Numbered from the stretch's first letter, positions 27,270-59,582 are shown. The stretch: 62,178 bases of DNA from an uncultured Desulfobacterales bacterium (GCA_964435695.1 CAYTAQ010000003.1:1-62178); one strand, 5' to 3'. Notes: generated from the letters alone by a model not told the origin. Numbers and translations: made by a program.

Positions 27270-27364
27270 TCAGTTTCGTTACAATCGTTTTTCGGTTTGA
27301 TAATTATAACGGCCGTCAACGTATCGTCGCTTTCGCGAACGCAAACCATATTTTTTTAAAAAAG

Positions 27365-34090: not shown

Positions 34091-34160
34091 GCACCCTGTT
34101 TACTTGGCCCCTTGAAAACACCGTATGATCCGTTCAACGCAGATATTTCGGTTATGTATC

Positions 34161-34345
34161 CAGGGGCAGGTCTTCTGGCTCCCCAGCCCTTTCAGCAGCC
34201 TTCCCATTTCGCTTTTGCAAAACAGTGGCTTAGGTCGGCTGAAAAGGTTCTCCCCCGGCGTTCACCGGGAAAAGCAGGGTTACAGCGGCGGGACCGCTCC
34301 CGATTTGCACGGGATTCCCTATTAAGCCGTAACGGCACCTAACAT
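34161..34345 (-). ncRNA. Cobalamin (AdoCbl) riboswitch
   Basis: Minus strand AGGTGCC...AATAGGGAATCCCGTGCAAATCGGGAGCGGTCCCGCCGCTGTAA...GCCACTG...GGGAAGG...GAGCCAGAAGACCTGCC (B12 box). Confidence 0.93.
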
Positions 34346-34415
34346 GCTGCAACCATAGAAGGAATGGATAATGCAGAAATAATCTTCTGAAAAAATTTGG
34401 ATGAACTGCTGATCC

Positions 34416-38717: not shown

Positions 38718-40529
38718 TTAAATTCCGTAAAAGAAGTAAAGGATTGACAGTTCGACGCTCAAAAAAATAACGGTCATGATCAGGCCGGCTTTGGCATAAT
38801 CCAGGGTTCGATAACCGCCGGGCCGCATGACCAGGGCGTTGACCTGATGCGTGGGCAGCACGAAGGTGTTGGACGCCGACAACCCGACCACCAGGGCCGC
38901 CATGCGCGGATCAGCTCCGGCAATGACCGCCATGTTCATGCACAGGGGCACCAGCAGCACGGTTGCGCCCACGTTTGAAATCACCAGGGTAAAAAAGGAG
39001 GTCATGATGCCTACAGCGGTCAACAGCAAGATGGGAGACGGCTGTCCCAGCAGCCCCAGTATCTGGTTGGCGATAAAGGCCGCGGTGCCGGTTTTTTCAA
39101 AGGCCATGCCAAGCGGAATGAGACCCGCCAGCAGAAATACGGTCATCCAGTCGACCGCCCGGTAGGCCTCGTCGATGTTGAGCACCCCACTGATGATCAT
39201 TCCCAGGGCGCCCGACATGAGGGCCACCGAAAGCTGAATCTTGAAAAAAATGATCTGGGCAAGTGAGACCGCCAGCCATAAAATGGCCAGTTTTGCTTTC
39301 TGGGGCCGCATGATTTCGCCTTCGAGCGGCGTCGCGAAGGTCAGCGCTCGTGGCTGCGGCCTGTTCTTGAGAATATGAAACCGCTCCCAGGGCCCCTGCA
39401 GAAGCAGGGTATCACCCATCTGGAGCTGAATGTGGGTCAGACCGCTGTAATAGATGCGTTTGCCTTTGAACAGGGCGACTGGATTGAGCTGGTAAAGATC
39501 CTTGAAGTTGACTTCGTTCATGGTTTTGCCGACCAGCTCCGACCGGGGTGAAACCACGGTTTCAGCCATGCCCGCATTGGTTCGGGAAAGGCTTTCGCCA
39601 AATGTATTCAGGCTTTCTTTGAGCGTCCAGCCATACTCCGATGCGAGCTGCCTTACATTTTTTTCCCTGCCCACCACGGCGATGTCGTCATTGGCGGCAA
39701 TGGGGCTGTAGCTTCTGGGAACGAAATTTTTTTCCTTTTTGTCCGCGTGGTAGACGGCTACGACGGTGACGAGAAATTTTGTCCTTATGTCAAGTTCGGA
39801 GAGTGTGCGCGGACCGTTGAAGTTTTCCGGCACCAGCAGTTCGAAGGTGCTGCCCAGCGCCTTATACTCTTCCATCAGCGAAGCCGTTACGCCCTTGTCA
39901 GCCTCCCCCTTGGCGGCCGGCAGGACAAAACGGCCGAACAAAACGAAATAGAGGATGGCGCTTCCCAGCAGACAGATTCCGATGGGCGTCTGGGTGAAGA
40001 GACCGAAGGGTTCCAGCTTTTCACCGCCGAGAACCATCAGGTCGTTCAGCAGAATCGTGGGGCTGGCGCCGACAAGCGTGATGGTCCCGCCGATAATTGC
40101 GCAAAATCCCATGGGCATGAGGATACGCGAAACCGGGACATTCATCCTTTTTGCGATCCGCTGTGCGGCCGGTAAAAAAAGCGCGGCCGCGCCGATATTC
40201 TGCATCATGCTCGAAATGATGCCCACAGCACCTGAAATCAGCGTAATGACGCGTTTTTCGCTTTTGCCGGCAAAGCGAATTATCGGGCCGGCAACTTGAT
40301 TCATCACGCCCGTTTTGTCCAGTCCGGCGCCGATGATGATCACGGCGATGATGGAGCAGACCGCATTGCTGCTAAGCCCCACAAAGGCGTCTTTAGGTGA
40401 AACGAGGCCGATTAGAGGAAGCAGCACCATCATGATAATGCCGACGACGTCAACCCTCACCCATTCAAAAACAAAGAGAACGATTACAAAAACAAGCACG
40501 ATCATAGTTAAAATCATGTCAGGTGCCAT
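38718..40529 (-). CDS. SLC13/DASS family permease with TrkA-C domains
   Basis: IIGAGLDKTG, MMQNIGAAA, GGTITLVGAS, SNVGATVLLVP, PTHQVNALV. Confidence 0.9.
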   Translation of the reverse strand: MAPDMILTMIVLVFVIVLFVFEWVRVDVVGIIMMVLLPLIGLVSPKDAFVGLSSNAVCSIIAVIIIGAGLDKTGVMNQVAGPIIRFAGKSEKRVITLISGAVGIISSMMQNIGAAALFLPAAQRIAKRMNVPVSRILMPMGFCAIIGGTITLVGASPTILLNDLMVLGGEKLEPFGLFTQTPIGICLLGSAILYFVLFGRFVLPAAKGEADKGVTASLMEEYKALGSTFELLVPENFNGPRTLSELDIRTKFLVTVVAVYHADKKEKNFVPRSYSPIAANDDIAVVGREKNVRQLASEYGWTLKESLNTFGESLSRTNAGMAETVVSPRSELVGKTMNEVNFKDLYQLNPVALFKGKRIYYSGLTHIQLQMGDTLLLQGPWERFHILKNRPQPRALTFATPLEGEIMRPQKAKLAILWLAVSLAQIIFFKIQLSVALMSGALGMIISGVLNIDEAYRAVDWMTVFLLAGLIPLGMAFEKTGTAAFIANQILGLLGQPSPILLLTAVGIMTSFFTLVISNVGATVLLVPLCMNMAVIAGADPRMAALVVGLSASNTFVLPTHQVNALVMRPGGYRTLDYAKAGLIMTVIFLSVELSILYFFYGI

Positions 40530-42223: not shown

Positions 42224-42327
42224 CGTTACAATTTGCAATGGTATTATCCGCCATGTCAAATAAGCATTGATTAACAGGTAGTTATGTACTGTTGCCGGAG
42301 AAGCGAACAGCGTTGCAGATCGCAACG
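42224..42327. promoter_or_regulatory. Candidate enhancer sites
   Basis: CGTTAC-N5-GCAATG (42224-42240) and perfect CGTTGC-N5-GCAACG (42311-42327). Confidence 0.5.
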
Positions 42328-42460
42328 AAATCCAGGCAAACCAACACGTCGAAACAATTTTGCATCGGCCGGTTATTTGTGGTATTCAGTCTTTGGTGTG
42401 TCTTGCAGCCGATGTTTTTCCTGGCGCGACCATGCCCTTCGGGTAAAAGAAAGGGTAATC

Positions 42461-44461
42461 ATGCGAATTTTCAAAAAAGAAGACGTGCAGGGGGCAGGAA
42501 GCAGCGAACTCGATGAGCTGCGCAGGACGGTTGGCGATGCCGGTCTGCCCGGGGATGTTGAAAAGGCTGCCCAAAAGGAACTCGACCGGATCGAGAAAAT
42601 GGGGCCGGCCAGCGCCGAATACACGATAGGTATCAACTATATTGATTTTGTGGCCAGTCTGCCCTGGCTCAAATCCACCGAGGACCGGCTGGACCTCAAA
42701 TCGGCGGAAGCGATTCTGGATGCCGAGCACTTCGGCCTTACGGAAATAAAAAACCGCATTCTGGAACACCTGGCCGTCAGGATACTGCAAACGTCACACC
42801 GCGAAAAGATGCTGGTGGTGGACGACGAAAAAATCACGCGTATGAATCTTGAGCATGTCCTTTCAAAGGAGGGCTACGATGTCGTGGTTGCCGCCGATGG
42901 ATCCGATGCGCTGGCGCTTTTGGAAAAAAACAGATTCGACGTTATCCTCACCGATTTAAAAATGGAAAAAGTCGACGGTATGGAGGTGCTCGGGAAGGCC
43001 AAGGAGAAAGATCCGTCCACGGAGGTCATCATTATCACCGGATATGCCACGGTGCCTACGGCGGTCGAGGCCATGCAGAAGGGATCGTATCACTTTCTGG
43101 CCAAGCCGTTGAAACTGAATGAAATCAGGTCCACCGTCCAGCAGGCATTATCCCGCAAACACGGCCGGTTCGAATCCCGCGGTTCGGTGCTTTGTTTTGC
43201 CGGGCCGCCCGGAACGGGAAAAACCTCGCTGGGGATGTCCATCGCCAGGAGCATGCACCGCAAATTTACGCGAATCTCTTTGGCGGGCATGAAGGATGAA
43301 GCCCAGCTCAGAGGGCATCGGCGAAGCTATGTAGGCGCTCTGCCCGGAAGAATCATTCAGGAAATCAGGCGCTGTGATACCCGCAACCCGGTCTTCATGC
43401 TGGACGAGTTGGACAAGATCGGCCAGGATTTCAAGGGCGATTCGGCTGCCGCCCTTCTGGAAATCCTGGACCCGGAACAGAACACCCATTTCATGGACCA
43501 CTATCTGGACATTCCTTTTGATCTGTCAAAAGTCATGTTTATCGCCACCGCCAATGCAGTGGACACAATTCCCGGCCCCCTGCTGGACCGTCTGGAGGTT
43601 TTGTGGCTTTCAGGGTATACGGACGTGGAAAAAACGCAAATCGCCTTCAATTATCTGATACCCAGAGAAAACCGCGCCGCAGGGCTTACCGATCCACCGG
43701 TCCGGTTTACCCCGGAAGCGGTGCGCAAGATAATTCGCGAATACACCCGGGAGGCCGGTCTGCGCGATCTGCAGCGACAGATTGCTTCGCTGTGCAGAAA
43801 AATAGCCCGCAACAAGCTGGATCCAAAAATAGGAATTGAGGATCTCCTGATTACCGAACAGCATGTTGAGACCCTTCTGGGACCCTGCCGGTTTTTCGTT
43901 GAGGTCGCGCATGCCAAAGACCGCATCGGCGTAGCGACCGCCCTTGCATGGACGGATGCCGGCGGAGAAATCGTTTTTATCGAAGCAACCAAAATGAAGG
44001 GTCGCAATCACCTTATCCTGACCGGATCGCTGGGCACGGTAATGAAGGAATCCGCCCAGGCGGCGTTGAGCTATATCCGCAGTCATGTCGAAGATTATGG
44101 AATAGCGGAGGACTTTTTCGAACAGCACGACATCCACATCCATATCCCGGCCGGTGCGATTCCTAAAGACGGCCCGTCGGCAGGTCTGCCGATCGCCATG
44201 GCGCTGTTGTCCCTGATTACCGGGCGGCCCTGCCGCCGCGATGTGGCCCTTAGCGGTGAGCTGACCTTGACCGGGCGCATACTGCCGGTGGGCGGTGTAA
44301 AGGAAAAGGTGCTGGCCGCCCATCGGGCCGGTGTAAAAACGGTTATATTTCCAGCCAAAAACAGTGCCAATCTGCAGGATATCCCCATCGAGATCGAAAA
44401 TGAACTCACCATCTCTTCGGTCGAAGAATTGTACCAGGCAGTCGATCTGGTCTTAAAATAG
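42461..44461 (+). CDS. lon: Lon protease lacking the N domain, with a receiver domain inserted before Walker A
   Basis: GPPGTGKTS, LDELDK, REAGLRDL, PKDGPSAG (catalytic Ser), GGVKEK (catalytic Lys); REC MLVVDD...TDLKM...AKP; start ATG 42461. Confidence 0.9.
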   Translation: MRIFKKEDVQGAGSSELDELRRTVGDAGLPGDVEKAAQKELDRIEKMGPASAEYTIGINYIDFVASLPWLKSTEDRLDLKSAEAILDAEHFGLTEIKNRILEHLAVRILQTSHREKMLVVDDEKITRMNLEHVLSKEGYDVVVAADGSDALALLEKNRFDVILTDLKMEKVDGMEVLGKAKEKDPSTEVIIITGYATVPTAVEAMQKGSYHFLAKPLKLNEIRSTVQQALSRKHGRFESRGSVLCFAGPPGTGKTSLGMSIARSMHRKFTRISLAGMKDEAQLRGHRRSYVGALPGRIIQEIRRCDTRNPVFMLDELDKIGQDFKGDSAAALLEILDPEQNTHFMDHYLDIPFDLSKVMFIATANAVDTIPGPLLDRLEVLWLSGYTDVEKTQIAFNYLIPRENRAAGLTDPPVRFTPEAVRKIIREYTREAGLRDLQRQIASLCRKIARNKLDPKIGIEDLLITEQHVETLLGPCRFFVEVAHAKDRIGVATALAWTDAGGEIVFIEATKMKGRNHLILTGSLGTVMKESAQAALSYIRSHVEDYGIAEDFFEQHDIHIHIPAGAIPKDGPSAGLPIAMALLSLITGRPCRRDVALSGELTLTGRILPVGGVKEKVLAAHRAGVKTVIFPAKNSANLQDIPIEIENELTISSVEELYQAVDLVLK

Positions 44462-47295: not shown

Positions 47296-48306
47296 ATGGC
47301 AGCGGAGCGATTGATTATAAACAACCTGTTGTCAAAGGTAAAACAGGGAAACAAAAAAAGCGCCTCGTGGTTGATGCGGATGATTGAAGACGGCGGTCCC
47401 CAGGCAGGCGCCATCCTATCCCGTCTCTATGACTTCTCTGCAACGGCACATCGTATCGGTATTACAGGATGGCCCGGGGTCGGTAAATCAACCCTGGTGA
47501 ATGCCTTGGCAAAGGCATATCTGGATGAGGGAAGACGTGTGGGGATTGTTGCTGTGGATCCCACCAGCCCTTACTCCGGAGGCAGCCTGCTTGGCGACCG
47601 CGACCGTTTCAGGGATGTGGACGGCCATCCCGATCTCTTCATCCGGTCCATGGCAACGCGAGGGTACGGCGGGGGCGTCGGTAAAGCCACCCGTGGAATC
47701 GTCAAAGTCATGGAAGCCATGGGTCAAGACGTGGTCCTGCTTGAAACCGTGGGAGTCGGCCAGGATCAGGTGGGTGTTTCCGCTATTGTGGATACCACCA
47801 TCATGGTGACGGCGCCCGGCCTCGGCGATTTCCTGCAATCCCTTAAAGCAGGCGTTCTCGAAGCCGGCGAAATCCTGGTGGTGAATAAAGCGGACAACCC
47901 GAATGCCGAACAGACCGCGGCGGATTTAACGGCATTGATCGAAATGGGACGTCACCCGGACGGGTGGAAACCCAGACTGGTATTAACCGTGGCCACCCGG
48001 GGAACAGGTATCGATGATTTACTGAAATCCATCCGGGATCACCGTCTTTTCCGGCAACAAAAGGGCGGCGTGAATCCCCGGCACAAAATAGCCGCGCGCC
48101 AGGAAATCCTGGATATGATCCGTGAACAGTGCCTCAATGCGGTAGCATGCCGCACCGGTCTCTACACTCGTTTGCCGGATCTGGTCGACCAGGTCTTTCA
48201 GGGCAGGCAGGACCCGTTGCGTATTGCGCAGGCATTGTTGAAAGAATGCAATTTATGTGACGATCCATCAGAAGATCCATCCATAGAAGACCCCTCAGGA
48301 GAATAA
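47296..48306 (+). CDS. meaB: MeaB/ArgK GTPase chaperone of B12 mutases
   Basis: GWPGVGKST, DPTSPYSGGSLLGDR, FIRSMATRG, ETVGVGQD, NKAD. Confidence 0.93.
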   Translation: MAAERLIINNLLSKVKQGNKKSASWLMRMIEDGGPQAGAILSRLYDFSATAHRIGITGWPGVGKSTLVNALAKAYLDEGRRVGIVAVDPTSPYSGGSLLGDRDRFRDVDGHPDLFIRSMATRGYGGGVGKATRGIVKVMEAMGQDVVLLETVGVGQDQVGVSAIVDTTIMVTAPGLGDFLQSLKAGVLEAGEILVVNKADNPNAEQTAADLTALIEMGRHPDGWKPRLVLTVATRGTGIDDLLKSIRDHRLFRQQKGGVNPRHKIAARQEILDMIREQCLNAVACRTGLYTRLPDLVDQVFQGRQDPLRIAQALLKECNLCDDPSEDPSIEDPSGE

Positions 48307-48308
48307 AT

Positions 48309-49937
48309 ATGCGTGAAGAACAAGTAAAGAGTACGTATCTTAGCGGCGAAAAATTACCCAATTTTGATTCTCTCTCCGGATTCCCTTATCAGGAGGTATA
48401 CCGCAAATCGGATTGGAATGAAAACCTGCCGGACCCCGGCCAATACCCTTACACCCGAGGCATCCATAAAAACATGTACCGGGGACGTTTGTGGACCCGC
48501 CGGCAGCAAAGCGGATTCGGCAGCCCGGAAGAAAGCAACGAGCGCTTAAAATATCTGCTCAACGTGGGCCAAACCGGTATTAATATGGATGCGGACATCG
48601 TGACAAAATTGGGACTGGACCCTGACCACCCGCTGGCCCGGGGCGATGTGGGTCTTACAGGAACCTCTTTGTTTTGCTATGAAGACATGCAGGCGCTCTT
48701 TAAAGGAATACCGCTCGATGAAGTCAGTTCAACACTGATCGTTCAACCACCGTACTCCGCCGTTATTATGTGCCACTATCTTCTGCTGGCTAAAGAGCGC
48801 GGCATTCCCTGGGAAAAACTTGTGGGAACCATTATGAATTGCGCCTTTACGCAGTTCGTGGGCCCCACGTTCCAATCCGCCACAACATTTTTTCCCCTGG
48901 ATCTGTCGGTAAAAATCGGTCTGGATGTCATGGAATACATGCTCCCCCGTTCGCCGCGCTGGAACATCCTAAATCTGAACGCCTACAATGTGCGCGAAAC
49001 CGGCGTAAATGCGGTACAGGAAGCAGCCTTTTCCATGTCACTGGCCTCCGACTATATCAAAGCCCTCATAAACCGCGGCCATGACGTGGACACATTTGCC
49101 AGACGCATGGCTTTTTTTACCGCCGCCCACCTCGACCTCTTTGAAGAAATTGCAAAACTCCGGGCCATGCGACGCATCTGGGCACGGATGCTAAAAGAAA
49201 AATTCAAGGCCAAGGATGAACGCTCCATGTACTGGCGAACGGCCATCCAAACCGCCGCTCTGCCGCTGACCGCCCAGGAGCCGTTGAACAATATTGTCAG
49301 AGCCACAATTCAGACCCTGGCTGCAGTGCTGGCGGGAACCCAGTCGATTCATACCACAGGCTATGACGAAGCCTACTCTCTGCCGACCGAAGAGAGTCAC
49401 AAGCTCTCGGTCCGTACCCAACAGATTATCGCCTACGAAAGCAAAGCAGCCAACACCGTCGATCCTTTGGGCGGTTCCTACATGATTGAGAAACTCACCG
49501 ACCGGATGGAGGAAGAAATCTGGGAATTGATGCAAACGCTGGAAGACAAAGGCGGTTTCATCGCGTGTTTCAAACAAGGTTGGATAGAGGAACAGATCAA
49601 TCAGGCCCGCTACAGCATGGCCGATGACATTGAGTCCGGCAAGCAGTCTGTGATCGGGGTAAACCTGTTCCACACGCAACAGGAAGCGCCGAAGATCAAT
49701 ATTTTCCGCACCGCTCCGGACATGCAGGATAGACGCATCGCTTACGCCCGCCTTTACAAAACCAAGCGTGATTCTGAGGCGGCCAAAACTGCAACCGGCA
49801 ACCTCGGAGATCTCGTGGCCACGAACACCAATATCAATTATATGGACAGCATCATGGAAGCGGTCAAATCCAGGGCCACTCTACAGGAAATATGCGATGC
49901 CATGCGACAGGCTTCCAACTTTACAATCCCTAAATAG
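48309..49937 (+). CDS. B12-dependent acyl-CoA mutase large (TIM-barrel) subunit, non-canonical active site
   Basis: PGQYPYTRGI, EEIAKLRAMRRIWA, EPLNNIVR, YDEA, DPLGGSYMIE; canonical substrate motifs altered. Confidence 0.9.
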   Translation: MREEQVKSTYLSGEKLPNFDSLSGFPYQEVYRKSDWNENLPDPGQYPYTRGIHKNMYRGRLWTRRQQSGFGSPEESNERLKYLLNVGQTGINMDADIVTKLGLDPDHPLARGDVGLTGTSLFCYEDMQALFKGIPLDEVSSTLIVQPPYSAVIMCHYLLLAKERGIPWEKLVGTIMNCAFTQFVGPTFQSATTFFPLDLSVKIGLDVMEYMLPRSPRWNILNLNAYNVRETGVNAVQEAAFSMSLASDYIKALINRGHDVDTFARRMAFFTAAHLDLFEEIAKLRAMRRIWARMLKEKFKAKDERSMYWRTAIQTAALPLTAQEPLNNIVRATIQTLAAVLAGTQSIHTTGYDEAYSLPTEESHKLSVRTQQIIAYESKAANTVDPLGGSYMIEKLTDRMEEEIWELMQTLEDKGGFIACFKQGWIEEQINQARYSMADDIESGKQSVIGVNLFHTQQEAPKINIFRTAPDMQDRRIAYARLYKTKRDSEAAKTATGNLGDLVATNTNINYMDSIMEAVKSRATLQEICDAMRQASNFTIPK

Positions 49938-49948
49938 GAGTTAAAGAC

Positions 49949-50347
49949 ATGTCAGCAAGAAAAAAACGAATCGTCATAGGCAAAATCGGTTTGGATTCCC
50001 ATGACAACGGCATTCGCATCGTCAGTAAATGGTATATGGATCATGGTTATGAGGTCATCTATTCCGGTCTGTACAATACCTCGGAACGAATCGTGCAAAT
50101 TGCCATCGAAGAATCGGCGGACGCCCTGGGAGTCAGTTTCCTTGGGGCCGAGCACCTGCATTACGGCCGCGAGCTTTCAGAATTGGTCAAAGCAAAGGGG
50201 TTGAACGATCTCAAACTTATTATCGGCGGAGTCATCCCTCCCGAGGATGTCAAGGAACTTGCCGACATGGGGTTTCAAGCGATCTTTACACCGGGGACCC
50301 GTCGCAAGACGATTCTTGACACAACCGATCAGATACTGAATATGTAA
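49949..50347 (+). CDS. B12-binding small subunit of the acyl-CoA mutase
   Basis: DSHDNG (DxHxxG), GVSFL, IIGGVIP, IFTPGT. Confidence 0.92.
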   Translation: MSARKKRIVIGKIGLDSHDNGIRIVSKWYMDHGYEVIYSGLYNTSERIVQIAIEESADALGVSFLGAEHLHYGRELSELVKAKGLNDLKLIIGGVIPPEDVKELADMGFQAIFTPGTRRKTILDTTDQILNM

Positions 50348-50373
50348 ACCTGAAACAATATGGAGCAGTTTTT

Positions 50374-51732
50374 ATGGAAATAGAAAACAAGCTGGTGCAA
50401 TTTGTAAAAGCCCTTCGTTTCCAGGAAATTCCCTCCCGGACTCTGGCTACTGTGAAAAACATGTTGATGACTGTAGCAGGCACCACCATTGCCGGAGCGG
50501 AGGCGGAAGGTTGTTCGGAAATAAGGGAGCTGTATGTCGCGTTGGGAGGTCGGGCCGAGGCCACGATTCTGGTTCACGGCGGCAAGCTGCCCGCACAACA
50601 CGCTGCGCTTGTCAACGGTGTAATGGCCCGGGCTCTGGATTATTGCGATGCCATGGCGCCCGGCCTGCACATTGGTTCGTCACTCGTCCCTGCGACCCTT
50701 GCCGCTGTCGATTTGCGCGGCGGTTGCAGCGGTGAAGAATTTTTAACCGCTCTCACCGCGGGCGCTGAGCTGAGTTCGCGTTTGAATCTCAGTGAATCTG
50801 CTTACAACGGCTTTGATCCAACCGGTGTTGCCGGCGTTTTCTCCGGCACCGCAGCAGCCTCTCGTATACTGGGTCTTGATGATTCACAACTTTGGAATGC
50901 ATTGGCGCTTGCCGGCAACCGCAGCGGTGCAACCTTTCAGAGCAACATCGACGGTTCGCTGGCCGTACGGCTGATTCAGGGATGGGTTGCTGCTACAGGC
51001 ATAGAATGCGCCCGCCTTGCCCAAAAGGGAATTACCGGACCCAAAAACTTTCTCGAGGGAGTCTACGGTTACTTCCACCTGTTTGCCAAGGATCAATACG
51101 ATCCTGAAACGGTGACCGGCCGCCTGGGCCAGGAATTTCAGCTCAACAAAATCGTTTTTAAGAAATTTCCGAGCTGCGGGCTGACACAGGGCGTCACTGA
51201 GCTGGCCCTTTCTTTAACCGCAGAACATGACTTAAAACCGCAGGAAATCAGCTCTGTGGAAGTTTTGGTGCCGCCCTATGCGCATAAGTTGGTCGGACAT
51301 AACTTTCAAATCGGGGACAATCCGAAGGTCAACGCCCAGTTCAGTATTCAATACTGTGTGGCCAGCGCCATTGTCCGGAATGGATCTCAGCTGCAGCACT
51401 TTGAAAAGGAAGCAATCACGGATCCTGAAGTTGCATCTCTAATCAAAAAAATCAAGGTCATTCCCGACCCCGGGATGGATATTCGGGGGCATACTTCCGT
51501 GGATCTTCGCGTGACCACCATACACGGCCGGGAATTTTTTACCCGGCTCGATCATGCACCGGGCTTCCCGGAAAATCCCCTTTCAGACCGGGAACATCTG
51601 CGCAGGTTTCGGGATTGCGTCCACTTTGCTGCTCGGCCGCCATCCAAAAGCAAGACCGAAGAATTGATCGATACCGTGCAAACCATTGAAAAACTGCATG
51701 ATGTCCGTGGTTTCATTTCATTAATGACATAA
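50374..51732 (+). CDS. MmgE/PrpD family protein
   Basis: AALVNGVMARALDYCD...H, GFDPT, KKFPSC, AQFSIQY, GFPENPLS. Confidence 0.9.
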   Translation: MEIENKLVQFVKALRFQEIPSRTLATVKNMLMTVAGTTIAGAEAEGCSEIRELYVALGGRAEATILVHGGKLPAQHAALVNGVMARALDYCDAMAPGLHIGSSLVPATLAAVDLRGGCSGEEFLTALTAGAELSSRLNLSESAYNGFDPTGVAGVFSGTAAASRILGLDDSQLWNALALAGNRSGATFQSNIDGSLAVRLIQGWVAATGIECARLAQKGITGPKNFLEGVYGYFHLFAKDQYDPETVTGRLGQEFQLNKIVFKKFPSCGLTQGVTELALSLTAEHDLKPQEISSVEVLVPPYAHKLVGHNFQIGDNPKVNAQFSIQYCVASAIVRNGSQLQHFEKEAITDPEVASLIKKIKVIPDPGMDIRGHTSVDLRVTTIHGREFFTRLDHAPGFPENPLSDREHLRRFRDCVHFAARPPSKSKTEELIDTVQTIEKLHDVRGFISLMT

Positions 51733-51826
51733 ATTTTCATGCCCATACGCGCACAACGAAGCATGAAACAAACCTTAATATCGAAATGCAATCGCCGGTC
51801 TTCAAAAAGAAAGCATGAAAATTTAT
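51729..51826. mobile_element. MITE-like element, copy 2 (98 bp, opposite orientation)
   Basis: Same 14-bp terminal inverted repeats; the left repeat supplies the TAA stop of the MmgE/PrpD gene. Confidence 0.8.
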
Positions 51827-51860
51827 TTAAAATGAATACATATTAAACAGGAGATAGGCC

Positions 51861-53423
51861 ATGAATCTGTTGGATATTTTGGTAAAATACAACCGGCTCT
51901 CGCCCAAAGCCACAGCCCTGGTGGAGATCAGGCCGCTTTCCGGAAAACGGCATGAAATTACATGGGAATCCTTGTACGAGCGCACCAATCGCCTGGCCAA
52001 CACGCTGTTATTGCAGGGTATCGGTAAGGGCGATACCGTCTTTTTATACGCCCACAATTCAATCGCCTGGCTGGAGGTGTATTTCGGTGTCATGAAAACC
52101 GGAGCATGCGTGGTGCCGCTCAATTACCGTTTCACGGATAAGGAATTGATGTATTGCCGGGAAATCGCTCATCCCAAGGCTTTCTTTTTCGGACCGCAGT
52201 TTGGCAGTCGGATTTCAGCCCTTCAATGCGAGCTGACCGGCGTCCGTCAATACGCATGCCTTGATTCGGAAGTTACCCCTTTTGACAGCCTGGATGAATT
52301 GATCAGCAGGGGAGGACCGTCGGATCCGAATACAGAGCTGTTCGACGACGGTGCAGCCGGACTTTATTTCACCAGCGGCACCACAGGCAATCCCAAACCA
52401 GTGCTGATGACGCACAAGAACCTTTTTTCCGCGGCAATCATCGAAGCGTTCAATCACCGGCTGTTATCGAGCGACGCCCTGCTGATGATGCCACCGTTCT
52501 ATCATCTGGCCATCGGCCATCTTACCGGCAATATGCTGGTGGGCGGAAGAAGTGTTCTGCTCACCGAAAAGATCAGCCCGCAAACCATCATTCAGACCAT
52601 GTCCGACGAGAAGATCAGCGTCGTATTCCTCCTGGTTCCCTGGGCGGTGGACATCCTGGAAGCGCTTGACAAGGGCCGATTGTCCCCTTCCGATTTTGAC
52701 CTGGATGCATGGCGGCTCACCCACATGGGCGCCCAGCCCATCCCGCCGGTACTGGTGCAAAGGCTCAAGCAATACTTCCCCGGCATGTTGTACGACACCT
52801 GTTACGGTCTCAGCGAAGCCGCCGGCCCGGGTGTGTTAAATCTGGGAATTGAAAATGAGCATAAGATCGGGGCGACCGGAAAGGCCGGACTCCTATGGGA
52901 TACCCGTATCGTGGACCACGAGGGACGCGATGTTGCCAAGGGAGAAGTCGGTGAACTGATCGTCAAGGGTCCGGGTGTGATGCGGGAGTATTATGACAAT
53001 CCTGAACTCACCGCCGAAACCGTAAGAGACGGCTGGCTTTTCACCGGCGACCTGGCGCGATTCGATGCAGACGACTTCATCTGGGTGGTGGACCGCAAAA
53101 AAGACCTGGTGATCAGCGGCGGAGAAAATATTTTCCCGGTGGAAATCGAAAAGACAATTATACAGCATCCAAAAGTGCACGACGTGGCCGTTATCGGCAC
53201 CCCGGATAATCGATTGGGCGAGATTGTCACGGCCGTGATACAGGTTGTGGAGGGAGAAAAGCTCCTTGAAGAGGAGATATCGGTATTCTGTGAGGCGTGC
53301 CTGCCGCGCTACAAACGCCCACGCTGCATTATTTTTGACAAGGTACCGCGGAATCCCACCGGAAAACTTAACAAACCGCTGTTGCGGCAAAAGTTCGCCG
53401 CTCCAAAAAAAGAAGGGATATAA
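51861..53423 (+). CDS. Acyl-CoA synthetase (ANL family)
   Basis: FTSGTTGNPK, CYGLSE, TGDL, SGGENIFP, NPTGKLNK. Confidence 0.92.
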   Translation: MNLLDILVKYNRLSPKATALVEIRPLSGKRHEITWESLYERTNRLANTLLLQGIGKGDTVFLYAHNSIAWLEVYFGVMKTGACVVPLNYRFTDKELMYCREIAHPKAFFFGPQFGSRISALQCELTGVRQYACLDSEVTPFDSLDELISRGGPSDPNTELFDDGAAGLYFTSGTTGNPKPVLMTHKNLFSAAIIEAFNHRLLSSDALLMMPPFYHLAIGHLTGNMLVGGRSVLLTEKISPQTIIQTMSDEKISVVFLLVPWAVDILEALDKGRLSPSDFDLDAWRLTHMGAQPIPPVLVQRLKQYFPGMLYDTCYGLSEAAGPGVLNLGIENEHKIGATGKAGLLWDTRIVDHEGRDVAKGEVGELIVKGPGVMREYYDNPELTAETVRDGWLFTGDLARFDADDFIWVVDRKKDLVISGGENIFPVEIEKTIIQHPKVHDVAVIGTPDNRLGEIVTAVIQVVEGEKLLEEEISVFCEACLPRYKRPRCIIFDKVPRNPTGKLNKPLLRQKFAAPKKEGI

Positions 53424-55516
53424 TGGCTAAAAAAATTGTGCGCAGCGCTTGCCGGGCCTGTCACGGCGGATGCGGTGTGTTGGTCACCGTGGAAGACAAC
53501 CGTGTCACCAACATCAAAGGCGACCCAGACTGCCCGGTGAACCGGGGATGGCTTTGCATCAAGGGTAAGAAATATCACACCATCACCCACCACCCGGATC
53601 GCCTCACCCACCCGATGAGCAAAGCCGACGGTTCATGGAAAAAGATATCCTGGGACGAAGCGTTCGATCTTGTCAGTGAGCGCTTTCTGTCCTACAAACG
53701 TGACTACGGCGCCGAATCCGTGGTTTTGGGGTACGGCACCGGCCGGGACATCGAATCCTTTATCTACCGCTTTGCGCACACCTTTGGCACGCCCAACGTG
53801 CTCACCGCCGGCCACATGTGTTACGGCCCCCGCATCGTAACCGGCATTTCCCTTTGCGGCAATCTGCCGGTGGTGGATTACGAAGGCCATCCTTCCTGCG
53901 TCGTGGTATGGGGCTGCAATCCCCTGGTTTCCAATCCCGACGAATACAAGGGCATCTACCTGGCCCGGGCCATTCAGCACGGAGCCAAGATTATCTGTAT
54001 TGATCCCAGACGCACGATCATCGCCAGGCAGGCCGATATCTGGCTGCAAATCCGGCCCGGCACGGATGGTGCGCTTGCCTGGGGCATGATCAACCACATC
54101 ATCGAAAATAACCTGTATGACGCGGATTTTGTGGAAAATCAGATTCACGGCTGGGATGCGTTTCGCGAACGGGCCAGAGAGTATCCCCTGGACTGGGCGG
54201 CTGAGAAAACCGGTCTGGATGCAGGTGATATCGCCGCAGCCGCTGAAATGTATGCTACCGCGGGACCGGCAGGAATACACTGGGGTGTGGCCCTGGAACA
54301 GACCCAAAACTGTATCAACAACATCAGGCTGTTGATCGGCCTGATGGCCGTCACCGGCAATCTGGATCGCCCCGGCGGCCAGGTCTTCTATCCCAACCCG
54401 CCGGTGGTCAATGCCTCGCAATTGGGCATGCATCGCGGCCTGACTCCGGATATGCTGAAAAAAAGACTTGGCGCGGAGCGCTTCCGCCTGGCGGCCCGCA
54501 TTGCGGTAATCAATCCCAAGGCGGTCTGGGACGCTATTTTAACTCAGACCCCCTACCCGGTCAAAGCCGTGTATCTCATCAGCACCAATCCCGTCATCAC
54601 ACGGGCCAACGCCAGGCAGGTGCACCAGGCCCTTTCCGCCGTGGACTTTCTTGTAGTCCAGGACTTCTTTATGACGCCCAGCGCATCATTGGCGGATGTG
54701 GTGCTGCCGGCAGCCACCTGGCTGGAAATCGACTACGTGGGAGATCTATGGAAGCGTCACGGATGGATAGTGGCCCGCAACAAGGCGGTAACGGTGGGTC
54801 AGGCCCGTTCGGACTATGACATTATCAACGAGTTGGGCAAGCGCTGCACGGATCCTCGTAACTGGTGGCCTACCCTGACAGACGCCTTCAACGACATCCT
54901 CTCTCCGGCCGGCATGACCTGGGAACAGTTCTCGCAGCGAGGATATCTGCAAGGCGAACGCAGATTCAGAAAATATAAGCGGGACGGCTTTCGTACCCCC
55001 ACCCGTAAAGTGGAGCTCTACTCAACCGTAATGGAACGGCTGGGATATGACCCCCTGCCCGGCTTTTCAGACCCGCCTGAAACTCCCTGGAGCAACCCCG
55101 AGATCGCCAAAGAATTCCCTTACCAGCTCATCACCGGGGCGCGTATACCGTTCTTTTTTCACAGCGAGAACCGGCAACCAGGCTTTCTGCGCTCCAGACG
55201 GCCCGATCCCATCGTGGAAATCCATCCCAAATTGGCGGCGGCCAAGGGGATAACCGAGGGCGACTGGGTTCGCATCGCATCCCCCCGGGGCAGCGTGGTG
55301 CAAAAGGCATTGATCACCGACCGCGTGCCGGAAAATGTGGTTTCCGCCGACCACGGCTGGTGGTTTCCGGAAGATCAGAATACCCAGGGGTGGGACCGCT
55401 CCAATATCGATGTCCTCACCGACAATGCCTATGAGAGTTGCGACCCGGCCATGGGCGCCACCAACCTGCGCACCTGCCTGTGCGATGTGACCCGAGCCGA
55501 AAGTCCCTATCCGTGA
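53423..55516 (+). CDS. Mo/W-bisPGD oxidoreductase, acetylene-hydratase-like subfamily
   Basis: N-terminal CxxCxxxC...C [4Fe-4S] motif, GHMCYG metal-ligand Cys, IDPR, RPGTDGAL, HGWW; no TAT signal. Confidence 0.88.
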   Translation: MAKKIVRSACRACHGGCGVLVTVEDNRVTNIKGDPDCPVNRGWLCIKGKKYHTITHHPDRLTHPMSKADGSWKKISWDEAFDLVSERFLSYKRDYGAESVVLGYGTGRDIESFIYRFAHTFGTPNVLTAGHMCYGPRIVTGISLCGNLPVVDYEGHPSCVVVWGCNPLVSNPDEYKGIYLARAIQHGAKIICIDPRRTIIARQADIWLQIRPGTDGALAWGMINHIIENNLYDADFVENQIHGWDAFRERAREYPLDWAAEKTGLDAGDIAAAAEMYATAGPAGIHWGVALEQTQNCINNIRLLIGLMAVTGNLDRPGGQVFYPNPPVVNASQLGMHRGLTPDMLKKRLGAERFRLAARIAVINPKAVWDAILTQTPYPVKAVYLISTNPVITRANARQVHQALSAVDFLVVQDFFMTPSASLADVVLPAATWLEIDYVGDLWKRHGWIVARNKAVTVGQARSDYDIINELGKRCTDPRNWWPTLTDAFNDILSPAGMTWEQFSQRGYLQGERRFRKYKRDGFRTPTRKVELYSTVMERLGYDPLPGFSDPPETPWSNPEIAKEFPYQLITGARIPFFFHSENRQPGFLRSRRPDPIVEIHPKLAAAKGITEGDWVRIASPRGSVVQKALITDRVPENVVSADHGWWFPEDQNTQGWDRSNIDVLTDNAYESCDPAMGATNLRTCLCDVTRAESPYP

Positions 55517-56686: not shown

Positions 56687-57718
56687 ATGCCGGAATTCGA
56701 CTTTTTACTGGACATTGATCTGTTTAAAAAAAGTCTATCAGAGCAACAGGTGGTCATCGAGCTTTTCTGGGAAAAAGCCCGGCTCCTGCTGAACGGTTCG
56801 GGAATTCAATTAACCCCCCTGCCAAAATCGTGGACCACCTTGCGGCAAAATCATTTTTCCGTATTATTTATCGCTATTTTTTTCATCCTAAAAATCCCGT
56901 TGGACCGACTCAGACTTTATGCCCGTCTGAATCATTGCCTCAGGTCCTGGGTCACGGCATGCGACAATCTGCTCGATAACGAACTGAAAGAAATGATTAT
57001 CACGGACTTGCCTGAAAATGCCCGCACATTTAAATCGGTACATACGCTGCTCGTCACGGATCGTATCTTTTTTTCCTTTCTTATGGATGCCGTCCACGCC
57101 AAAATTATTTCTGAAAAGGAAATGATGCGATTGTTGGCTGTGTCTTTGTCTTCCATCTCCGCCAGCGGCAGAGAAGAAGCCGAAGAAGAGGAAGGGATTG
57201 ATCACACGCTGCCACCGGAAGATGTTCTTAACAAGATTCATTCAGCCAAGACAGGCCGGTTGTTCATATCGCCCTTATGCGCACCCGCCGCTCTCCACGA
57301 TATCAATAGTGAGGACCCGCAGGTTGCCGGCGTTCGGGAAGGACTCATGGCATTCGGACTTGGATGCCAGGTTCTGGATGATTTGAGCGACCTCGGCATG
57401 GATCTCTACGACAACAAATACAACTATCTGGCGGCATTGATCGTTCACGGTAACGATATGAAAGAAAAAGAGCTTTTGCTGGCATTAGCGTCCAAGGGCT
57501 TAACTCCTGGCATACGCAATGATTTTCAACTCTATCAAAAATTTCCGCACGCTTCAAAAAACGCCATGGACATGGCGGTATCCCAGCTGCATCGAGCCTT
57601 GACGCATCTTTCTCAGTCAGGCTTGCCGTTGACCGCCATTAACAGAGAATCGTTTATCAAGGTTTTGATCAAGGTCTTCCGTCACCCCAATCGCCTGTTG
57701 AATATAAGGGAGCGATAA
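56687..57718 (+). CDS. Class I isoprenoid-synthase-fold protein
   Basis: DNLLD first motif, KTGRLF, FGLGCQVLDDLSD second aspartate-rich motif. Confidence 0.7.
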   Translation: MPEFDFLLDIDLFKKSLSEQQVVIELFWEKARLLLNGSGIQLTPLPKSWTTLRQNHFSVLFIAIFFILKIPLDRLRLYARLNHCLRSWVTACDNLLDNELKEMIITDLPENARTFKSVHTLLVTDRIFFSFLMDAVHAKIISEKEMMRLLAVSLSSISASGREEAEEEEGIDHTLPPEDVLNKIHSAKTGRLFISPLCAPAALHDINSEDPQVAGVREGLMAFGLGCQVLDDLSDLGMDLYDNKYNYLAALIVHGNDMKEKELLLALASKGLTPGIRNDFQLYQKFPHASKNAMDMAVSQLHRALTHLSQSGLPLTAINRESFIKVLIKVFRHPNRLLNIRER

Positions 57719-58914
57719 TGCCGTCGCGATCACTTCAAATCTGGGCATATATGGCCGCGCGGTTTATTTTGCGGCATCGTAGAAAAACCATCGCAACAGC
57801 AAGTTTTATCATCCTTGGAACCGGTATACTGGTTTTTTTGCACGCACTCACCGTGGGTATCAATGATACCATGGTGTTGAATACAACACGCCTGCACTAC
57901 GGGGATATATTCATAGAAATACCGGCCGCGTTCCATCATCCCGAGTCGATCGCTCAAAGCATCTCAGCGGAAAAAGGGGTTGAATCGACCCTCTTCCGAT
58001 ACCGCCTTTCAGGCCTGTTAACCAACAACTCGGTTTCGGCGCCGGCTGTTTTATATGCCGTAAACCCGAAAATGGAGGCAGCCGGAACAGCTATCGCGCT
58101 GCGCATGTCCTCCGGAAGATATCCGGGGATCCTCAGTCATGAGATCCTTTTGGGCCAAACCATCGCTGAAAAAATTAAGGTAATCGCAGGCGATACACTG
58201 TCGATCGTCGAAAGCTCAGGAAAATATCTCGGCGAATTCAGGGTGAGTGGTACGTATCAGACTGAAATCCCTAACTTCGACAACATGGTCGCCTATGTGC
58301 CCCTTCAGGCAATCGACCCCACGATCCGCCGACTCAACCCTTCTGAAATTTCAATTTTTTTAGACAAGGATAAAAATTATCAAAAAATCAAAACCCGCCT
58401 GAAAACGCTGATTCCGATAAATCTCAAACTGCAAACCTGGGAAGAACTTATGCCGGACCTGCTTCAGCTTATCGAGATGAACGAAGTGGCCATGCGAATC
58501 CTGATCCTGTTTATTTTCATCCTTGTGGGATTCGGCATCAGCAATAGCTTTGTTTTAACGATTGTAGAAAGATTCAGAGAATTCGGAATCCTGAAAGCCA
58601 TGGGCGTCACCCCGAAAGAGCTGGTGGGCCTCGTGTTCCTTGAAAGCTTTATGGTCTGTTTTGCGGCGACGCTGATCGGGCTGCTCATGGGGTGGGTATT
58701 GACGCTGACGGTTGCCTGTGTGGGTATTGATTTCAGCAGCCTGACATCTCACAACCGCTACTTCATCGTGACCGGTTTGGTACGTCCGCGGGCAACGCTG
58801 GAAAGCTTTTACTGGCCAGGGATCCTTTCGCTGGCGGCTTCGGTCGTATCATCCTATCTGCCCACCCGCATCGCCGCCAAGAAAACCACCTCCGAAACAC
58901 TCAGGTTTGCCTAA
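57718..58914 (+). CDS. LolC/E-like ABC permease
   Basis: N-terminal TM, periplasmic domain, ERFREFGILKAMG; TAATG coupling. Confidence 0.88.
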   Translation: MPSRSLQIWAYMAARFILRHRRKTIATASFIILGTGILVFLHALTVGINDTMVLNTTRLHYGDIFIEIPAAFHHPESIAQSISAEKGVESTLFRYRLSGLLTNNSVSAPAVLYAVNPKMEAAGTAIALRMSSGRYPGILSHEILLGQTIAEKIKVIAGDTLSIVESSGKYLGEFRVSGTYQTEIPNFDNMVAYVPLQAIDPTIRRLNPSEISIFLDKDKNYQKIKTRLKTLIPINLKLQTWEELMPDLLQLIEMNEVAMRILILFIFILVGFGISNSFVLTIVERFREFGILKAMGVTPKELVGLVFLESFMVCFAATLIGLLMGWVLTLTVACVGIDFSSLTSHNRYFIVTGLVRPRATLESFYWPGILSLAASVVSSYLPTRIAAKKTTSETLRFA

Positions 58915-59582
58915 TGGATATCGCCGTCTCTTTAATAAACGCGAGCAAAGTATTTATGACCGGCAGTGCGCAGGTAAAGGCGATTTCCGATGTTTCATTC
59001 GATATACCCGATGGATCATTTTGGGTCATTGCCGGTCCTTCCGGATCAGGCAAAACAACCCTTTTAAACCTCATCGGCGGACTGGATCGCGCAACATCCG
59101 GTGAGGTTGTCATAGGAACGATGAAGCTGAGCCGTATGGATGAGCAGGGCCTTGCGCTCTACAGAAGAAGCCGGGTGGGATTCATCTTCCAGGGAAACAA
59201 TTTAATAACCAGCCTCACCGCATTTGAAAACATCGAGATTCCCCTGATTTTGACCGGCGCGTCCCATAGAAAAAGCAAAGTCCGGGCCATTCTGGAAGAA
59301 ATCGGGTTGAGCGACAAGCACCGCATGTTCCCGCAATTCTTATCGGCAGGAGAACAGCAGCGGATTGCCGTAGCCCGAGCGGTGGTGCATTCCCCGAAAA
59401 TCGTGCTGGCGGATGAACCCACGGCGAACCTCGATGCCAAGACCGGCTCTGAAATTCTGATCCTGCTTCAGCGATTGAATCGCAAACTCAAAAGAACCAT
59501 TCTGCTTTCGACCCATGATCCAAGAATCATCGAAAACAGTGAAAATGTGTTGCAACTGTCGGACGGCAAACTCCAGTTGTAA
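58914..59582 (+). CDS. LolD-like ABC ATPase
   Basis: GPSGSGKTT, LSAGEQQR, ADEPTANLD, STHD. Confidence 0.9.
   Translation: MDIAVSLINASKVFMTGSAQVKAISDVSFDIPDGSFWVIAGPSGSGKTTLLNLIGGLDRATSGEVVIGTMKLSRMDEQGLALYRRSRVGFIFQGNNLITSLTAFENIEIPLILTGASHRKSKVRAILEEIGLSDKHRMFPQFLSAGEQQRIAVARAVVHSPKIVLADEPTANLDAKTGSEILILLQRLNRKLKRTILLSTHDPRIIENSENVLQLSDGKLQL

Follow-up and report, generated by a model that had tools for sequence, protein, structure and literature searches.

What reaction is served by a set of genes that brings a B12-dependent carbon-skeleton mutase together with an MmgE/PrpD-family protein, an acyl-CoA ligase and a molybdenum/tungsten (Mo/W) enzyme? This question is raised by six genes at positions 47296-55516 on the + strand of a 62,178-nt stretch of DNA, hereafter the window, from an uncultured Desulfobacterales bacterium (GCA_964435695.1 CAYTAQ010000003.1:1-62178). 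With somewhat more confidence than doubt, we read these genes as a variant of a catabolic module widespread in anaerobes, whose fixed core consists of an MmgE/PrpD-like enzyme (PrpD-like enzyme below) and a B12-dependent carbon-skeleton mutase, and which probably degrades an organic acid. The reading is carried by the unusual active site of the mutase, by the adjacency of mutase, PrpD-like and ligase genes in many related loci, and by the correlation between the ligase and the type of mutase. A preliminary description of the window, made from the sequence alone, had proposed a candidate new B12-dependent pathway and knew of no described pathway with this set of genes. The proposal is upheld in that the mutase fits no characterised specificity group tested, and full-text literature searches found no description of the gene combination, of a mutase-PrpD-ligase module or of its hypothetical reactions.

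The six open reading frames (ORFs) in the ORF list of the window share one orientation and are closely packed, and their families, assigned by Pfam and NCBIfam profile searches with curated cut-offs, agree with those proposed earlier, as do their coordinates exactly:

47296-48306 (+), MeaB-type G-protein chaperone, 336 aa; Pfam MeaB E = 3.9e-79; TIGR00750 290.9 bits (equivalog cut-off 240.75)
48309-49937 (+), mutase large, substrate-binding subunit ("type A"), 542 aa; PF01642 MM_CoA_mutase E = 1e-166; TIGR00641 499 bits (against 303.8)
49949-50347 (+), mutase small, B12-binding subunit, 132 aa; PF02310; TIGR00640 121.9 bits (cut-off 57.45)
50374-51732 (+), MmgE/PrpD-family enzyme, 452 aa; PF03972 (MmgE_PrpD_N) E = 6.6e-49; PF19305 (MmgE_PrpD_C) E = 1.1e-28
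51861-53423 (+), ANL-family acyl-CoA ligase, 520 aa; PF00501 AMP-binding E = 5.6e-65; PF13193 AMP-binding_C E = 5.7e-13
53423-55516 (+), Mo/W-bis-pyranopterin guanine dinucleotide enzyme, 697 aa; Pfam Molybdop_Fe4S4, Molybdopterin and Molydop_binding

The intergenic spacers measure, in gene order, 2 nt (between meaB and the gene of the mutase large subunit), 11, 26 and 128 nt, the last one, between the PrpD-like and ligase genes, being AT-rich, and the ligase and Mo/W genes overlap by 1 nt (TAATG).

The mutase and its active site

The MM_CoA_mutase domain of the large subunit and the small subunit with all cobalamin motifs, namely DxHxxG (GLDSHDNG), SxL (SFL) and GG (IIGG), place the enzyme in the acyl-CoA mutase superfamily. 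The small subunit is predicted to bind B12 in the base-off/His-on mode, and the MeaB-type protein, which scores above its equivalog cut-off, is predicted to load and repair adenosylcobalamin on the mutase. The best solved relative of the large subunit turned out to be HcmA of 2-hydroxyisobutyryl-CoA mutase (HCM; 4r3u, 393 bits, 39% identity), followed by the human and Propionibacterium methylmalonyl-CoA mutases (MCM), and IcmF gave the weakest match to a mutase in the PDB (165 bits). The acyl-CoA mutase reactions known to us so far are those of MCM, isobutyryl-CoA mutase (ICM), ECM, HCM/RCM, PCM and IaaGH.

Specificity positions were mapped on HMMER alignments of the window mutase with 1req (MCM) and 4r3u (HcmA). 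In MCM we take Tyr89 and Arg207 to bind the carboxylate and His244 to be catalytic (P. shermanii numbering), and ICM is distinguished by Phe80 at the position of MCM Tyr89 and by Gln198 at that of Arg207. HCM reportedly carries Ile90, Asp117 and Gln208 in addition to the conserved catalytic His, and the RCM-type HCMs are said to have Val at position 117. The window mutase has the following residues at the aligned positions:

MCM Tyr89 (ICM Phe80, HCM Ile90): Gln67
MCM Gln197: Met176
MCM Arg207 (ICM Gln198, HCM Gln208): Ser190, preceded by a 4-residue insertion
MCM catalytic His244 (kept in the MCM and HCM sequences aligned here): Asn227
HCM Asp117: Asp94 (kept)

Gln67, Ser190 and Asn227 stand at the positions that define an MCM, and the corresponding profile NF006944 gives 412.7 bits against a cut-off of 876. 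Gln67 and Ser190 likewise depart from ICM and IcmF, the IcmF equivalog scoring 207 bits against 1500. From HCM the Asp at position 117 is kept, but Ile90 is replaced by Gln67, the region of Gln208 is remodelled and the catalytic His has become Asn227. Furthermore, Arg64 and Arg229 have no counterpart in MCM or HCM. The signature RRQQSGFG ... NMD ... GTIMNC..GPTFQS ... AYN(V/I)RE(T/C)G shows virtually no variation among the 120 closest database homologs; these share 69-75% identity with the window mutase and come chiefly from Desulfobacterota metagenomes. On sequence grounds the window mutase is assigned to a putative new clade, type A, outside MCM, ICM and HCM, the three groups covered by the comparison.

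Since no solved structure is closer than HcmA and the Asp117 specific to HCM is kept, it has to be asked whether this could be an ordinary operon for an acyl-CoA mutase with a known substrate (methylmalonyl-, isobutyryl- or 2-hydroxyisobutyryl-CoA) that happens to lie beside unrelated genes. In clusters for 2-hydroxyisobutyrate (2-HIBA), too, a mutase stands together with a ligase and with a chaperone resembling MeaB (PMC7176365), and an RcmAB-like HCM serves acetone use in sulfate reducers (PMC7888143). Moreover, in some type-A loci the mutase has a class-IV aminotransferase and an oxidoreductase like VOR/POR as neighbours, which a conversion of valine to isobutyryl-CoA would lead one to expect. 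However, neither the Tyr89/Arg207/His244 of MCM, the Phe80/Gln198 of ICM nor the Ile90/Gln208 of HCM is present, and the Asp that is invariant in type A at HCM position 117 argues against membership of the RCM-type HCMs with their Val, RcmA being compared at this one residue. Within the 60 solved structures closest to the window ligase none is listed as a 2-HIBA-CoA ligase (HCL), a comparison that did not extend to an HCL sequence itself, and none of these pathways explains the repeated tight linkage to PrpD-like and ligase genes described below. We regard an ordinary operon as highly unlikely, and the view that the cluster is not of the MCM, ICM or HCM type is supported. The acetone/2-HIBA route of Desulfococcus and Desulfosarcina was set aside by its description, which has an RcmAB-like mutase in a cluster with a thiamine-diphosphate enzyme and a short-chain dehydrogenase/reductase (SDR), and neither PrpD nor ligase.

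The PrpD-like enzyme and its mutase partners

The protein encoded next to the mutase possesses both the N- and the C-terminal domain of the MmgE/PrpD superfamily, and it scores far below the PrpD equivalogs (NF006943, 35.6 bits against 575; TIGR02330, 32.6 bits against 458). Its nearest structures, at about 1e-28, are iminodisuccinate (IDS) epimerase and cis-aconitate decarboxylase (CAD). The active site of CAD reportedly consists of Asp93, Thr97, His103, His159, Lys207, Lys272, His277 and Tyr318, of which three are kept in the PrpD-like protein (Asp93, His103 and Lys272, aligned with Asp89, His99 and Lys263; CAD Asp96 is aligned with Asp92) and five of the eight are changed, Thr97 to Ala93, His159 to Asp148, Lys207 to Val198/Arg199, His277 to Cys268 and Tyr318 to Leu306. 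The "PSC" motif with Cys268 is shared with IDS epimerase. By these comparisons the PrpD-like enzyme, the hub of the module, is an ortholog of neither PrpD, CAD nor IDS epimerase. The ligase belongs to the ANL adenylate-forming family and scores under every NCBIfam cut-off for specific ligases. Cut-off scores and active-site residues together bear out the earlier remark that the catalytic genes deviate from their characterised relatives.

Conservation was followed in two sets of related loci (L numbers below). The first is centred on PrpD and comprises 80 genome loci retrieved by an alignment of PrpD homologs and analysed by tblastn and ORF clustering. A B12-dependent mutase lies within 10 kb (<=10 kb) in 42 of the 80, belonging to type A in 10 loci, to a type B in 12 and to a Glm-like type in 20. 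The type-A mutases of this set are 59-73% identical to that of the window. Type B forms a further lineage of acyl-CoA mutases that shares 33-34% identity with type A, has a non-canonical site of its own and is usually accompanied by MeaB. The Glm-type loci carry a GlmE/GlmS/GlmL-like set as in glutamate mutase, beside the PrpD-like gene. Their GlmE-like protein reaches 330 bits against the 390 of the glutamate-mutase equivalog cut-off and has lost Arg149, Glu171 (the ligand of the amino group) and Tyr181, which argues that it is no glutamate mutase and has a new specificity as well; we predict it to be a free-acid B12 mutase. A cluster of this kind, IclR-GlmE-GlmS-GlmL-PrpD(-CobO), is present in the cultured isolate Geobacter argillaceus ATCC BAA-1139 (L025:6389-11144) and in 19 further loci (e.g., L022, L023, L026, L061 and L068).

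In a distance tree the PrpD proteins of type-A, type-B and Glm loci are intermixed, which argues for one PrpD orthogroup around which the mutase has been exchanged, and the arrangement looks like non-orthologous displacement at one rearrangement step. The ligase follows the chemistry of the mutase: an ortholog, defined by at least 45% identity to the window ligase, is present in 19 of the 22 loci that pair an acyl-CoA mutase with PrpD (50-60% identity) and in none of the 20 Glm-type loci.

The second set, centred on the mutase, comprises 80 loci from a scan of metagenome contigs with the type-A alignment. Among the 38 type-A loci with at least 2.5 kb of downstream sequence, 24 contain PrpD and 24 contain the ligase. 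The usual order is TetR-MutL-MutS-PrpD-Lig-(TRAP), with a TetR regulator in 35 of the 80 loci and DctPQM genes of a tripartite ATP-independent periplasmic (TRAP) transporter in about 15; MeaB, found in 12 of the 80, is a variable member, and a Mo/W homolog occurs in no more than one. The genes may be shuffled with the set retained, as in L001, which reads MutL-MutS-DUF169-Lig-PrpD-Mo-FeS. Besides TetR and TRAP DctPQM, the recurrent neighbours include flavoproteins resembling fumarate reductase and aspartate oxidase, crotonase, corrinoid adenosyltransferases, 3-hydroxyacyl-CoA dehydrogenase and an enzyme like 3-hydroxyisobutyrate dehydrogenase, and these accessory genes fit an organic-acid or acyl-CoA route. 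The hosts belong to the Desulfobacteraceae, Desulfatiglandales, Syntrophorhabdales and Syntrophus, and Actinomycetota loci of the Glm type (L064, L068) are also found. The preliminary description had looked to neighbourhood conservation across anaerobes for confirmation, and for the mutase/PrpD/ligase core this has been obtained in many of them, whereas the six genes are not conserved as one unit, given MeaB in 12 of 80 loci and the Mo/W gene in about three instances.

A far simpler explanation would be that the six genes are juxtaposed by chance, or are operon partners of hisD without a common pathway. The hisD gene indeed lies just 28 nt upstream with no clear promoter between, the AT-rich gap of 128 nt separates the PrpD-like and ligase genes, and the closest homologs of the Mo/W enzyme are found elsewhere. 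Against this stands the adjacency of mutase, PrpD and ligase in dozens of independent contigs, in shuffled order and across phyla, so that the idea is hardly credible for the cluster and, for the core, appears close to refuted by the comparison of loci.

Type-A mutases are also met in other arrangements. Tandem pairs of type-A mutase genes occur within one module at L065:4236-9590 and in L131, L132, L158 and L159, with 55-64% identity to the window mutase, which hints at two successive rearrangements or two substrate isomers. In L002/L003:8061-17407, L098 and L107, a type-A mutase with the usual active-site signature is accompanied by TetR and MeaB, with neither PrpD nor ligase. Behind it come genes for a POR/VOR-type oxidoreductase, which includes an NAD(P)-binding subunit like GltD, for a binding protein of the peptide type, and for an amidohydrolase and a class-IV aminotransferase. 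The identification of such an oxidoreductase beside some type-A mutases as a 2-oxoglutarate enzyme was rejected, since NCBIfam places it in the POR/VOR group.

Proposed reaction order, candidate substrates and surrounding genes

From these gene associations we infer an order of four steps. The PrpD-like enzyme would first convert a free organic acid, (de)hydration being likeliest, as PrpD acts on 2-methylcitrate, and epimerisation the main alternative. The dedicated ANL ligase would form the CoA thioester of the acid, the type-A mutase, loaded by MeaB, would interconvert branched R-CH(CH3)-CO-SCoA and linear R-CH2-CH2-CO-SCoA, and the product would pass to central or beta-oxidation-type metabolism. 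Other genomes would combine this PrpD orthogroup with a type-B mutase and the same ligase, or with the Glm-like enzyme, which would act on free acids and hence need no ligase. The PrpD-like enzyme is placed on the free acid, ahead of the ligase, because its orthogroup also serves the ligase-free, free-acid Glm-type mutase in 20 loci and because the module has no conserved thioesterase or CoA transferase; on the same ground, the order ligase, mutase, PrpD that had been proposed at the outset is less parsimonious. The contrasting ligase counts in acyl-CoA-mutase and Glm-type loci likewise fit a ligase that feeds the CoA-dependent mutase and a PrpD-like enzyme that handles the free acid, and the ligase, dedicated to the module, probably makes the substrate of the mutase.

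The proposal is at its weakest for the identity of the substrate, for which our best guess is a substituted C5 dicarboxylate, with R as a polar group that bears a carboxylate. A glutamate-mutase-type enzyme shifts the C1-C2 fragment of a 2-substituted glutarate, and an acyl-CoA mutase acting on the C5 thioester shifts CO-SCoA; by our own reasoning both shifts lead to the same skeleton, a 2-substituted 3-methylsuccinate. If the substituent is a hydroxyl, the reaction would be 2-hydroxyglutaryl-CoA ↔ β-methylmalyl-CoA or, with free acids, 2-hydroxyglutarate ↔ 3-methylmalate, and since 3-methylmalate is 2-methylcitrate minus the carboxymethyl arm, PrpD-type (de)hydration to mesaconate or citraconate would be the most conservative chemistry. 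The resulting scheme, in which mesaconate or citraconate would be converted to 3-methylmalate by the PrpD-like enzyme, to β-methylmalyl-CoA by the ligase and to 2-hydroxyglutaryl-CoA by the mutase, has in our estimation a small but real chance of being the right one; the flavoproteins of related loci would then connect methylsuccinate and mesaconate. An itaconate route through CAD (cis-aconitate to itaconate to itaconyl-CoA, then the mutase) was rejected, CAD residues not being kept and itaconyl-CoA having no sp3 neighbour for a 1,2-shift.

Substituted succinates are signature metabolites of anaerobic hydrocarbon degradation, and the module could instead scavenge alkyl- or aryl-succinates, the ligase activating them, the mutase yielding a substituted malonyl-CoA (a conversion proposed for alkylsuccinyl-CoA and demonstrated for IaaGH) and the PrpD-like protein supplying the needed stereoisomer as an epimerase or acting as a free-acid decarboxylase. 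The closest solved relative of the PrpD-like protein, IDS epimerase, does epimerise a substituted succinate and shares with it the Cys268 of the "PSC" motif; the hosts (Desulfobacteraceae, Desulfatiglandales, Syntrophorhabdales, Syntrophus) are typical degraders of hydrocarbons and aromatics, and a potentially decarboxylating crotonase is found in some loci. Ligase, mutase and decarboxylation in succession are, moreover, the accepted scheme for alkylsuccinates (PMC8163825). On the other hand, genes for alkyl-/benzylsuccinate synthase or carboxyltransferase are found neither in the annotated parts of the related loci nor in those of the window, whose first 26 kb lie outside the annotation. Tyr89 and Arg207, the carboxylate binders expected for a succinyl-type substrate, are missing from the mutase, and by our own reasoning an equivalent Glm-like step on a free substituted succinate is not obvious. 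We consider this alternative unlikely.

The reading of the cluster as a variant of a widespread PrpD-mutase module, and the substrate scheme attached to it, have themselves several points to answer. Nearly half of the PrpD-centred loci (38 of 80) have no mutase nearby. The type-A signature also occurs in loci without PrpD, either with a POR/VOR-type 2-oxoacid:ferredoxin oxidoreductase and a class-IV aminotransferase or with a PaaK-like ligase, where the substrate could be a simpler acyl-CoA. The TetR, TRAP, flavoprotein and crotonase genes usual for the module are absent from the window, as is CobO, and scans for promoters and terminators around the cluster gave only background-level signals, uninformative on operon structure, with hisD just upstream. 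Type B has Ile at the position of the type-A Asp94, therefore the argument that this Asp binds a hydroxyl is not common to both lineages. The scheme from 3-methylmalate to 2-hydroxyglutaryl-CoA rests on chemical analogy, and all MmgE/PrpD enzymes known to us use tri- or tetracarboxylates, not C5 dicarboxylates.

The place of the Mo/W enzyme is more peripheral. Its best PDB match is acetylene hydratase (2e7z, 2.6e-113), in which Cys141 is reportedly the tungsten ligand, Asp13 beside an iron-sulfur (FeS) cysteine is catalytic, and a hydrophobic ring includes Ile142. The Cys ligand is kept in the window enzyme (HMCYG), Asp13 is replaced by His and Ile142 by Tyr, and both replacements are fixed across 120 homologs (motifs CxxCHGGCG and GHxCYGPR). 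A formate dehydrogenase of FdhF type does not fit either, TIGR01591 giving 313 bits against 666.25 and the metal site being Cys-Tyr, not Cys/Sec-His. The enzyme has no twin-arginine translocation signal and is therefore expected to be cytoplasmic. The gene follows the module in about three instances, namely the window, L001 (54% identity) and L028 (55%), and in L009, L050, L064 and L068 PrpD has more distant members of the family (34-38%) in its vicinity, the latter two loci with a DUF169 gene as well. The recurrent association with PrpD and the 1-base overlap with the ligase gene argue for a functional link with the module.

In the preliminary description the Mo/W enzyme stood first, oxidising or hydrating the growth substrate ahead of CoA activation and rearrangement, with the PrpD-like step last. 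The translational coupling of its gene to that of the ligase, the recurrence of its homologs near PrpD in three mutase backgrounds, and the FeS subunit in L001, which suggests redox chemistry, speak for such an order. The pathway nevertheless runs without it: of the 18 type-A loci whose downstream sequence extends over 6.5 kb or more, only one contains a homolog, which is distant (31% identity) and lies upstream of the mutase, and the closest homologs (72-78% identity) are found in other contexts, beside IclR, with electron-transfer-flavoprotein, FeS and ligase genes, or with aldehyde dehydrogenase and SDR. A PrpD-like step at the end would also require a CoA-ester substrate or a thioesterase, neither of which is supported. 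We judge this order distinctly improbable, and an entry role for the Mo/W enzyme finds no support. Membership of the core was rejected as well, the contexts of those closest homologs being unrelated; most modules are also without the gene. Under the reading of a PrpD-mutase core, we infer that the Mo/W enzyme is a lineage-specific addition, neither entry step nor acetylene hydratase, which probably supplies the module with a related compound or removes one of its products.

Several other genes accompany Mo/W homologs. In L001 the Mo/W gene is followed by a TtrB/DmsB-like FeS subunit with four clusters. A DUF169 protein is repeatedly found with an acetylene-hydratase-like Mo/W enzyme and a PrpD-like gene, in Desulfobacterota and Actinomycetota alike (L001:12099-12887, L068:6210-7016, L064:12541-13353). 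Amidohydro_2 proteins, from the family of LigJ-type hydratases and non-oxidative decarboxylases, are encoded near PrpD- and Mo/W-like genes at L009:18472-19593 and L050:9463-10650.

In the window, the 5′ flank of the cluster contains hisD, which shares its strand, serC on the other strand, and a Lon protease with a receiver domain. On the 3′ side a lipoprotein-like ORF converges with the cluster and precedes a MacB-type ABC (ATP-binding cassette) system. Neither flank contains epimerase or carboxyltransferase genes, as the initial remark that no methylmalonyl-CoA epimerase or carboxylase is present would lead one to expect. No B12 riboswitch precedes the cluster. The sole example, which is also the only Rfam match in the window, is a cobalamin riboswitch at 34148-34359 (-; 84 bits), 13 kb off on the other strand; the gene behind it, about 380 nt downstream and separated from it by no convincing ORF, codes for an ammonium transporter (32474-33766, -), an odd target. 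A transporter of the CitMHS/Na-sulfate-symporter (DASS) type with a TrkA_C domain is encoded at 38718-40529 (-), 7 kb before the cluster; in L004 the type-A mutase has similar transporter families in its neighbourhood, as has the Mo/W homolog in L087. This transporter might be a substitute uptake system, the window having no TRAP transporter of the module type. The Lon protease (42284-44461, +; AAA+, S16) has its response-regulator receiver domain at residues 177-285 and would be a phosphorylation-controlled Lon. Further away, a CrtC-like lipocalin protein has an ABC ATPase and a large, 864-aa permease of the FtsX type as neighbours (26124-30690, -), and a second MacB-type ABC system is at 57718-59582.

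Significance and comparison with known systems

It would be a notable addition to B12 biochemistry if an undescribed natural acyl-CoA rearrangement, perhaps β-methylmalyl-CoA ↔ 2-hydroxyglutaryl-CoA or one of some other polar or carboxylated acyl-CoA, proceeded with Asn in place of the otherwise universal catalytic His, in a widespread anaerobic pathway with three interchangeable B12 mutases around a PrpD-like enzyme of new function, a few lineages adding a Mo/W enzyme of new function; for this full picture our doubt slightly outweighs our confidence. The type-A clade is large and environmentally common, in sediments, peat, wetlands and digesters, and its rebuilt active site without the canonical His, tied to PrpD and a ligase, very probably marks an undescribed degradation of organic acids in sulfate reducers and syntrophs. 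One PrpD orthogroup with three types of B12 mutase is a rare and clean example of non-orthologous displacement, and the distribution of the ligase between CoA-type and free-acid-type loci directly constrains the chemistry and makes it testable. Each earlier new acyl-CoA mutase has opened a pathway and provided a biocatalytic tool, and functional work would here assign roles for the first time within two subfamilies, a new one of MmgE/PrpD proteins and an acetylene-hydratase-like one of Mo/W enzymes.

The system is best described as a new acyl-CoA mutase clade in a new pathway context, its predicted overall plan (CoA supply, two-subunit mutase, chaperone) being that of HCM/HCL/MeaH or of MCM/MeaB. 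Similar to the window, HcmAB/MeaH with 2-HIBA-CoA ligase of Aquincola tertiaricarbonis (4r3u) encodes within a single cluster a two-subunit mutase, a G-protein chaperone separate from it and an ANL ligase dedicated to it. The window mutase differs from HCM in Gln67 for Ile90, in the 4-residue insertion with Ser190 for Gln208, in Asn227 for the catalytic His and in the new Arg64 and Arg229; in addition, relatives of the module carry TetR where HCM clusters have GntR, and the PrpD-like gene usually stands between mutase and ligase. With MCM/MeaB (Propionibacterium shermanii 1req; human MMUT/MMAA) the window shares the fold, the small domain with DxHxxG, MeaB and a radical 1,2-shift of CO-SCoA, whereas it has other residues in place of both the carboxylate clamp (Tyr89/Arg207) and the general acid (His244) and lacks the epimerase/carboxyltransferase partner.

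Glutamate mutase (GlmES/GlmL) of the methylaspartate pathway resembles the 20 related loci in which a PrpD-like gene takes the place of methylaspartase, both being linear-to-branched rearrangements of dicarboxylates. The Glm set is found in these related loci and not in the window, and its partner is PrpD-like, not an ammonia-lyase of the enolase type. In the MmgE/PrpD family (PrpD, IRG1/CAD, IDS epimerase), with which the PrpD-like protein shares the two-domain fold signature, we know of no member linked to a B12 mutase. Acetylene hydratase of Pelobacter acetylenicus (2e7z) is matched by the Mo/W enzyme as a cytoplasmic, monomer-type protein of about 700 residues with an N-terminal [4Fe-4S] Cys motif and a Cys metal ligand, while the contexts of the Mo/W homologs are organic acids and CoA ligases, not acetylene, and L001 has a separate FeS subunit. 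Lastly, IaaGH (PMC8360864) and the postulated alkylsuccinyl-CoA mutases (PMC8163825) are, like the module, catabolic mutases for substituted dicarboxyl-CoA esters in anaerobes, encoded in substrate-specific clusters. Those pathways employ a CoA transferase or ligase together with either a carboxyltransferase or a dehydrogenase that decarboxylates; a PrpD-like enzyme is absent from them, and it is by these gene sets that they are set apart from the window.

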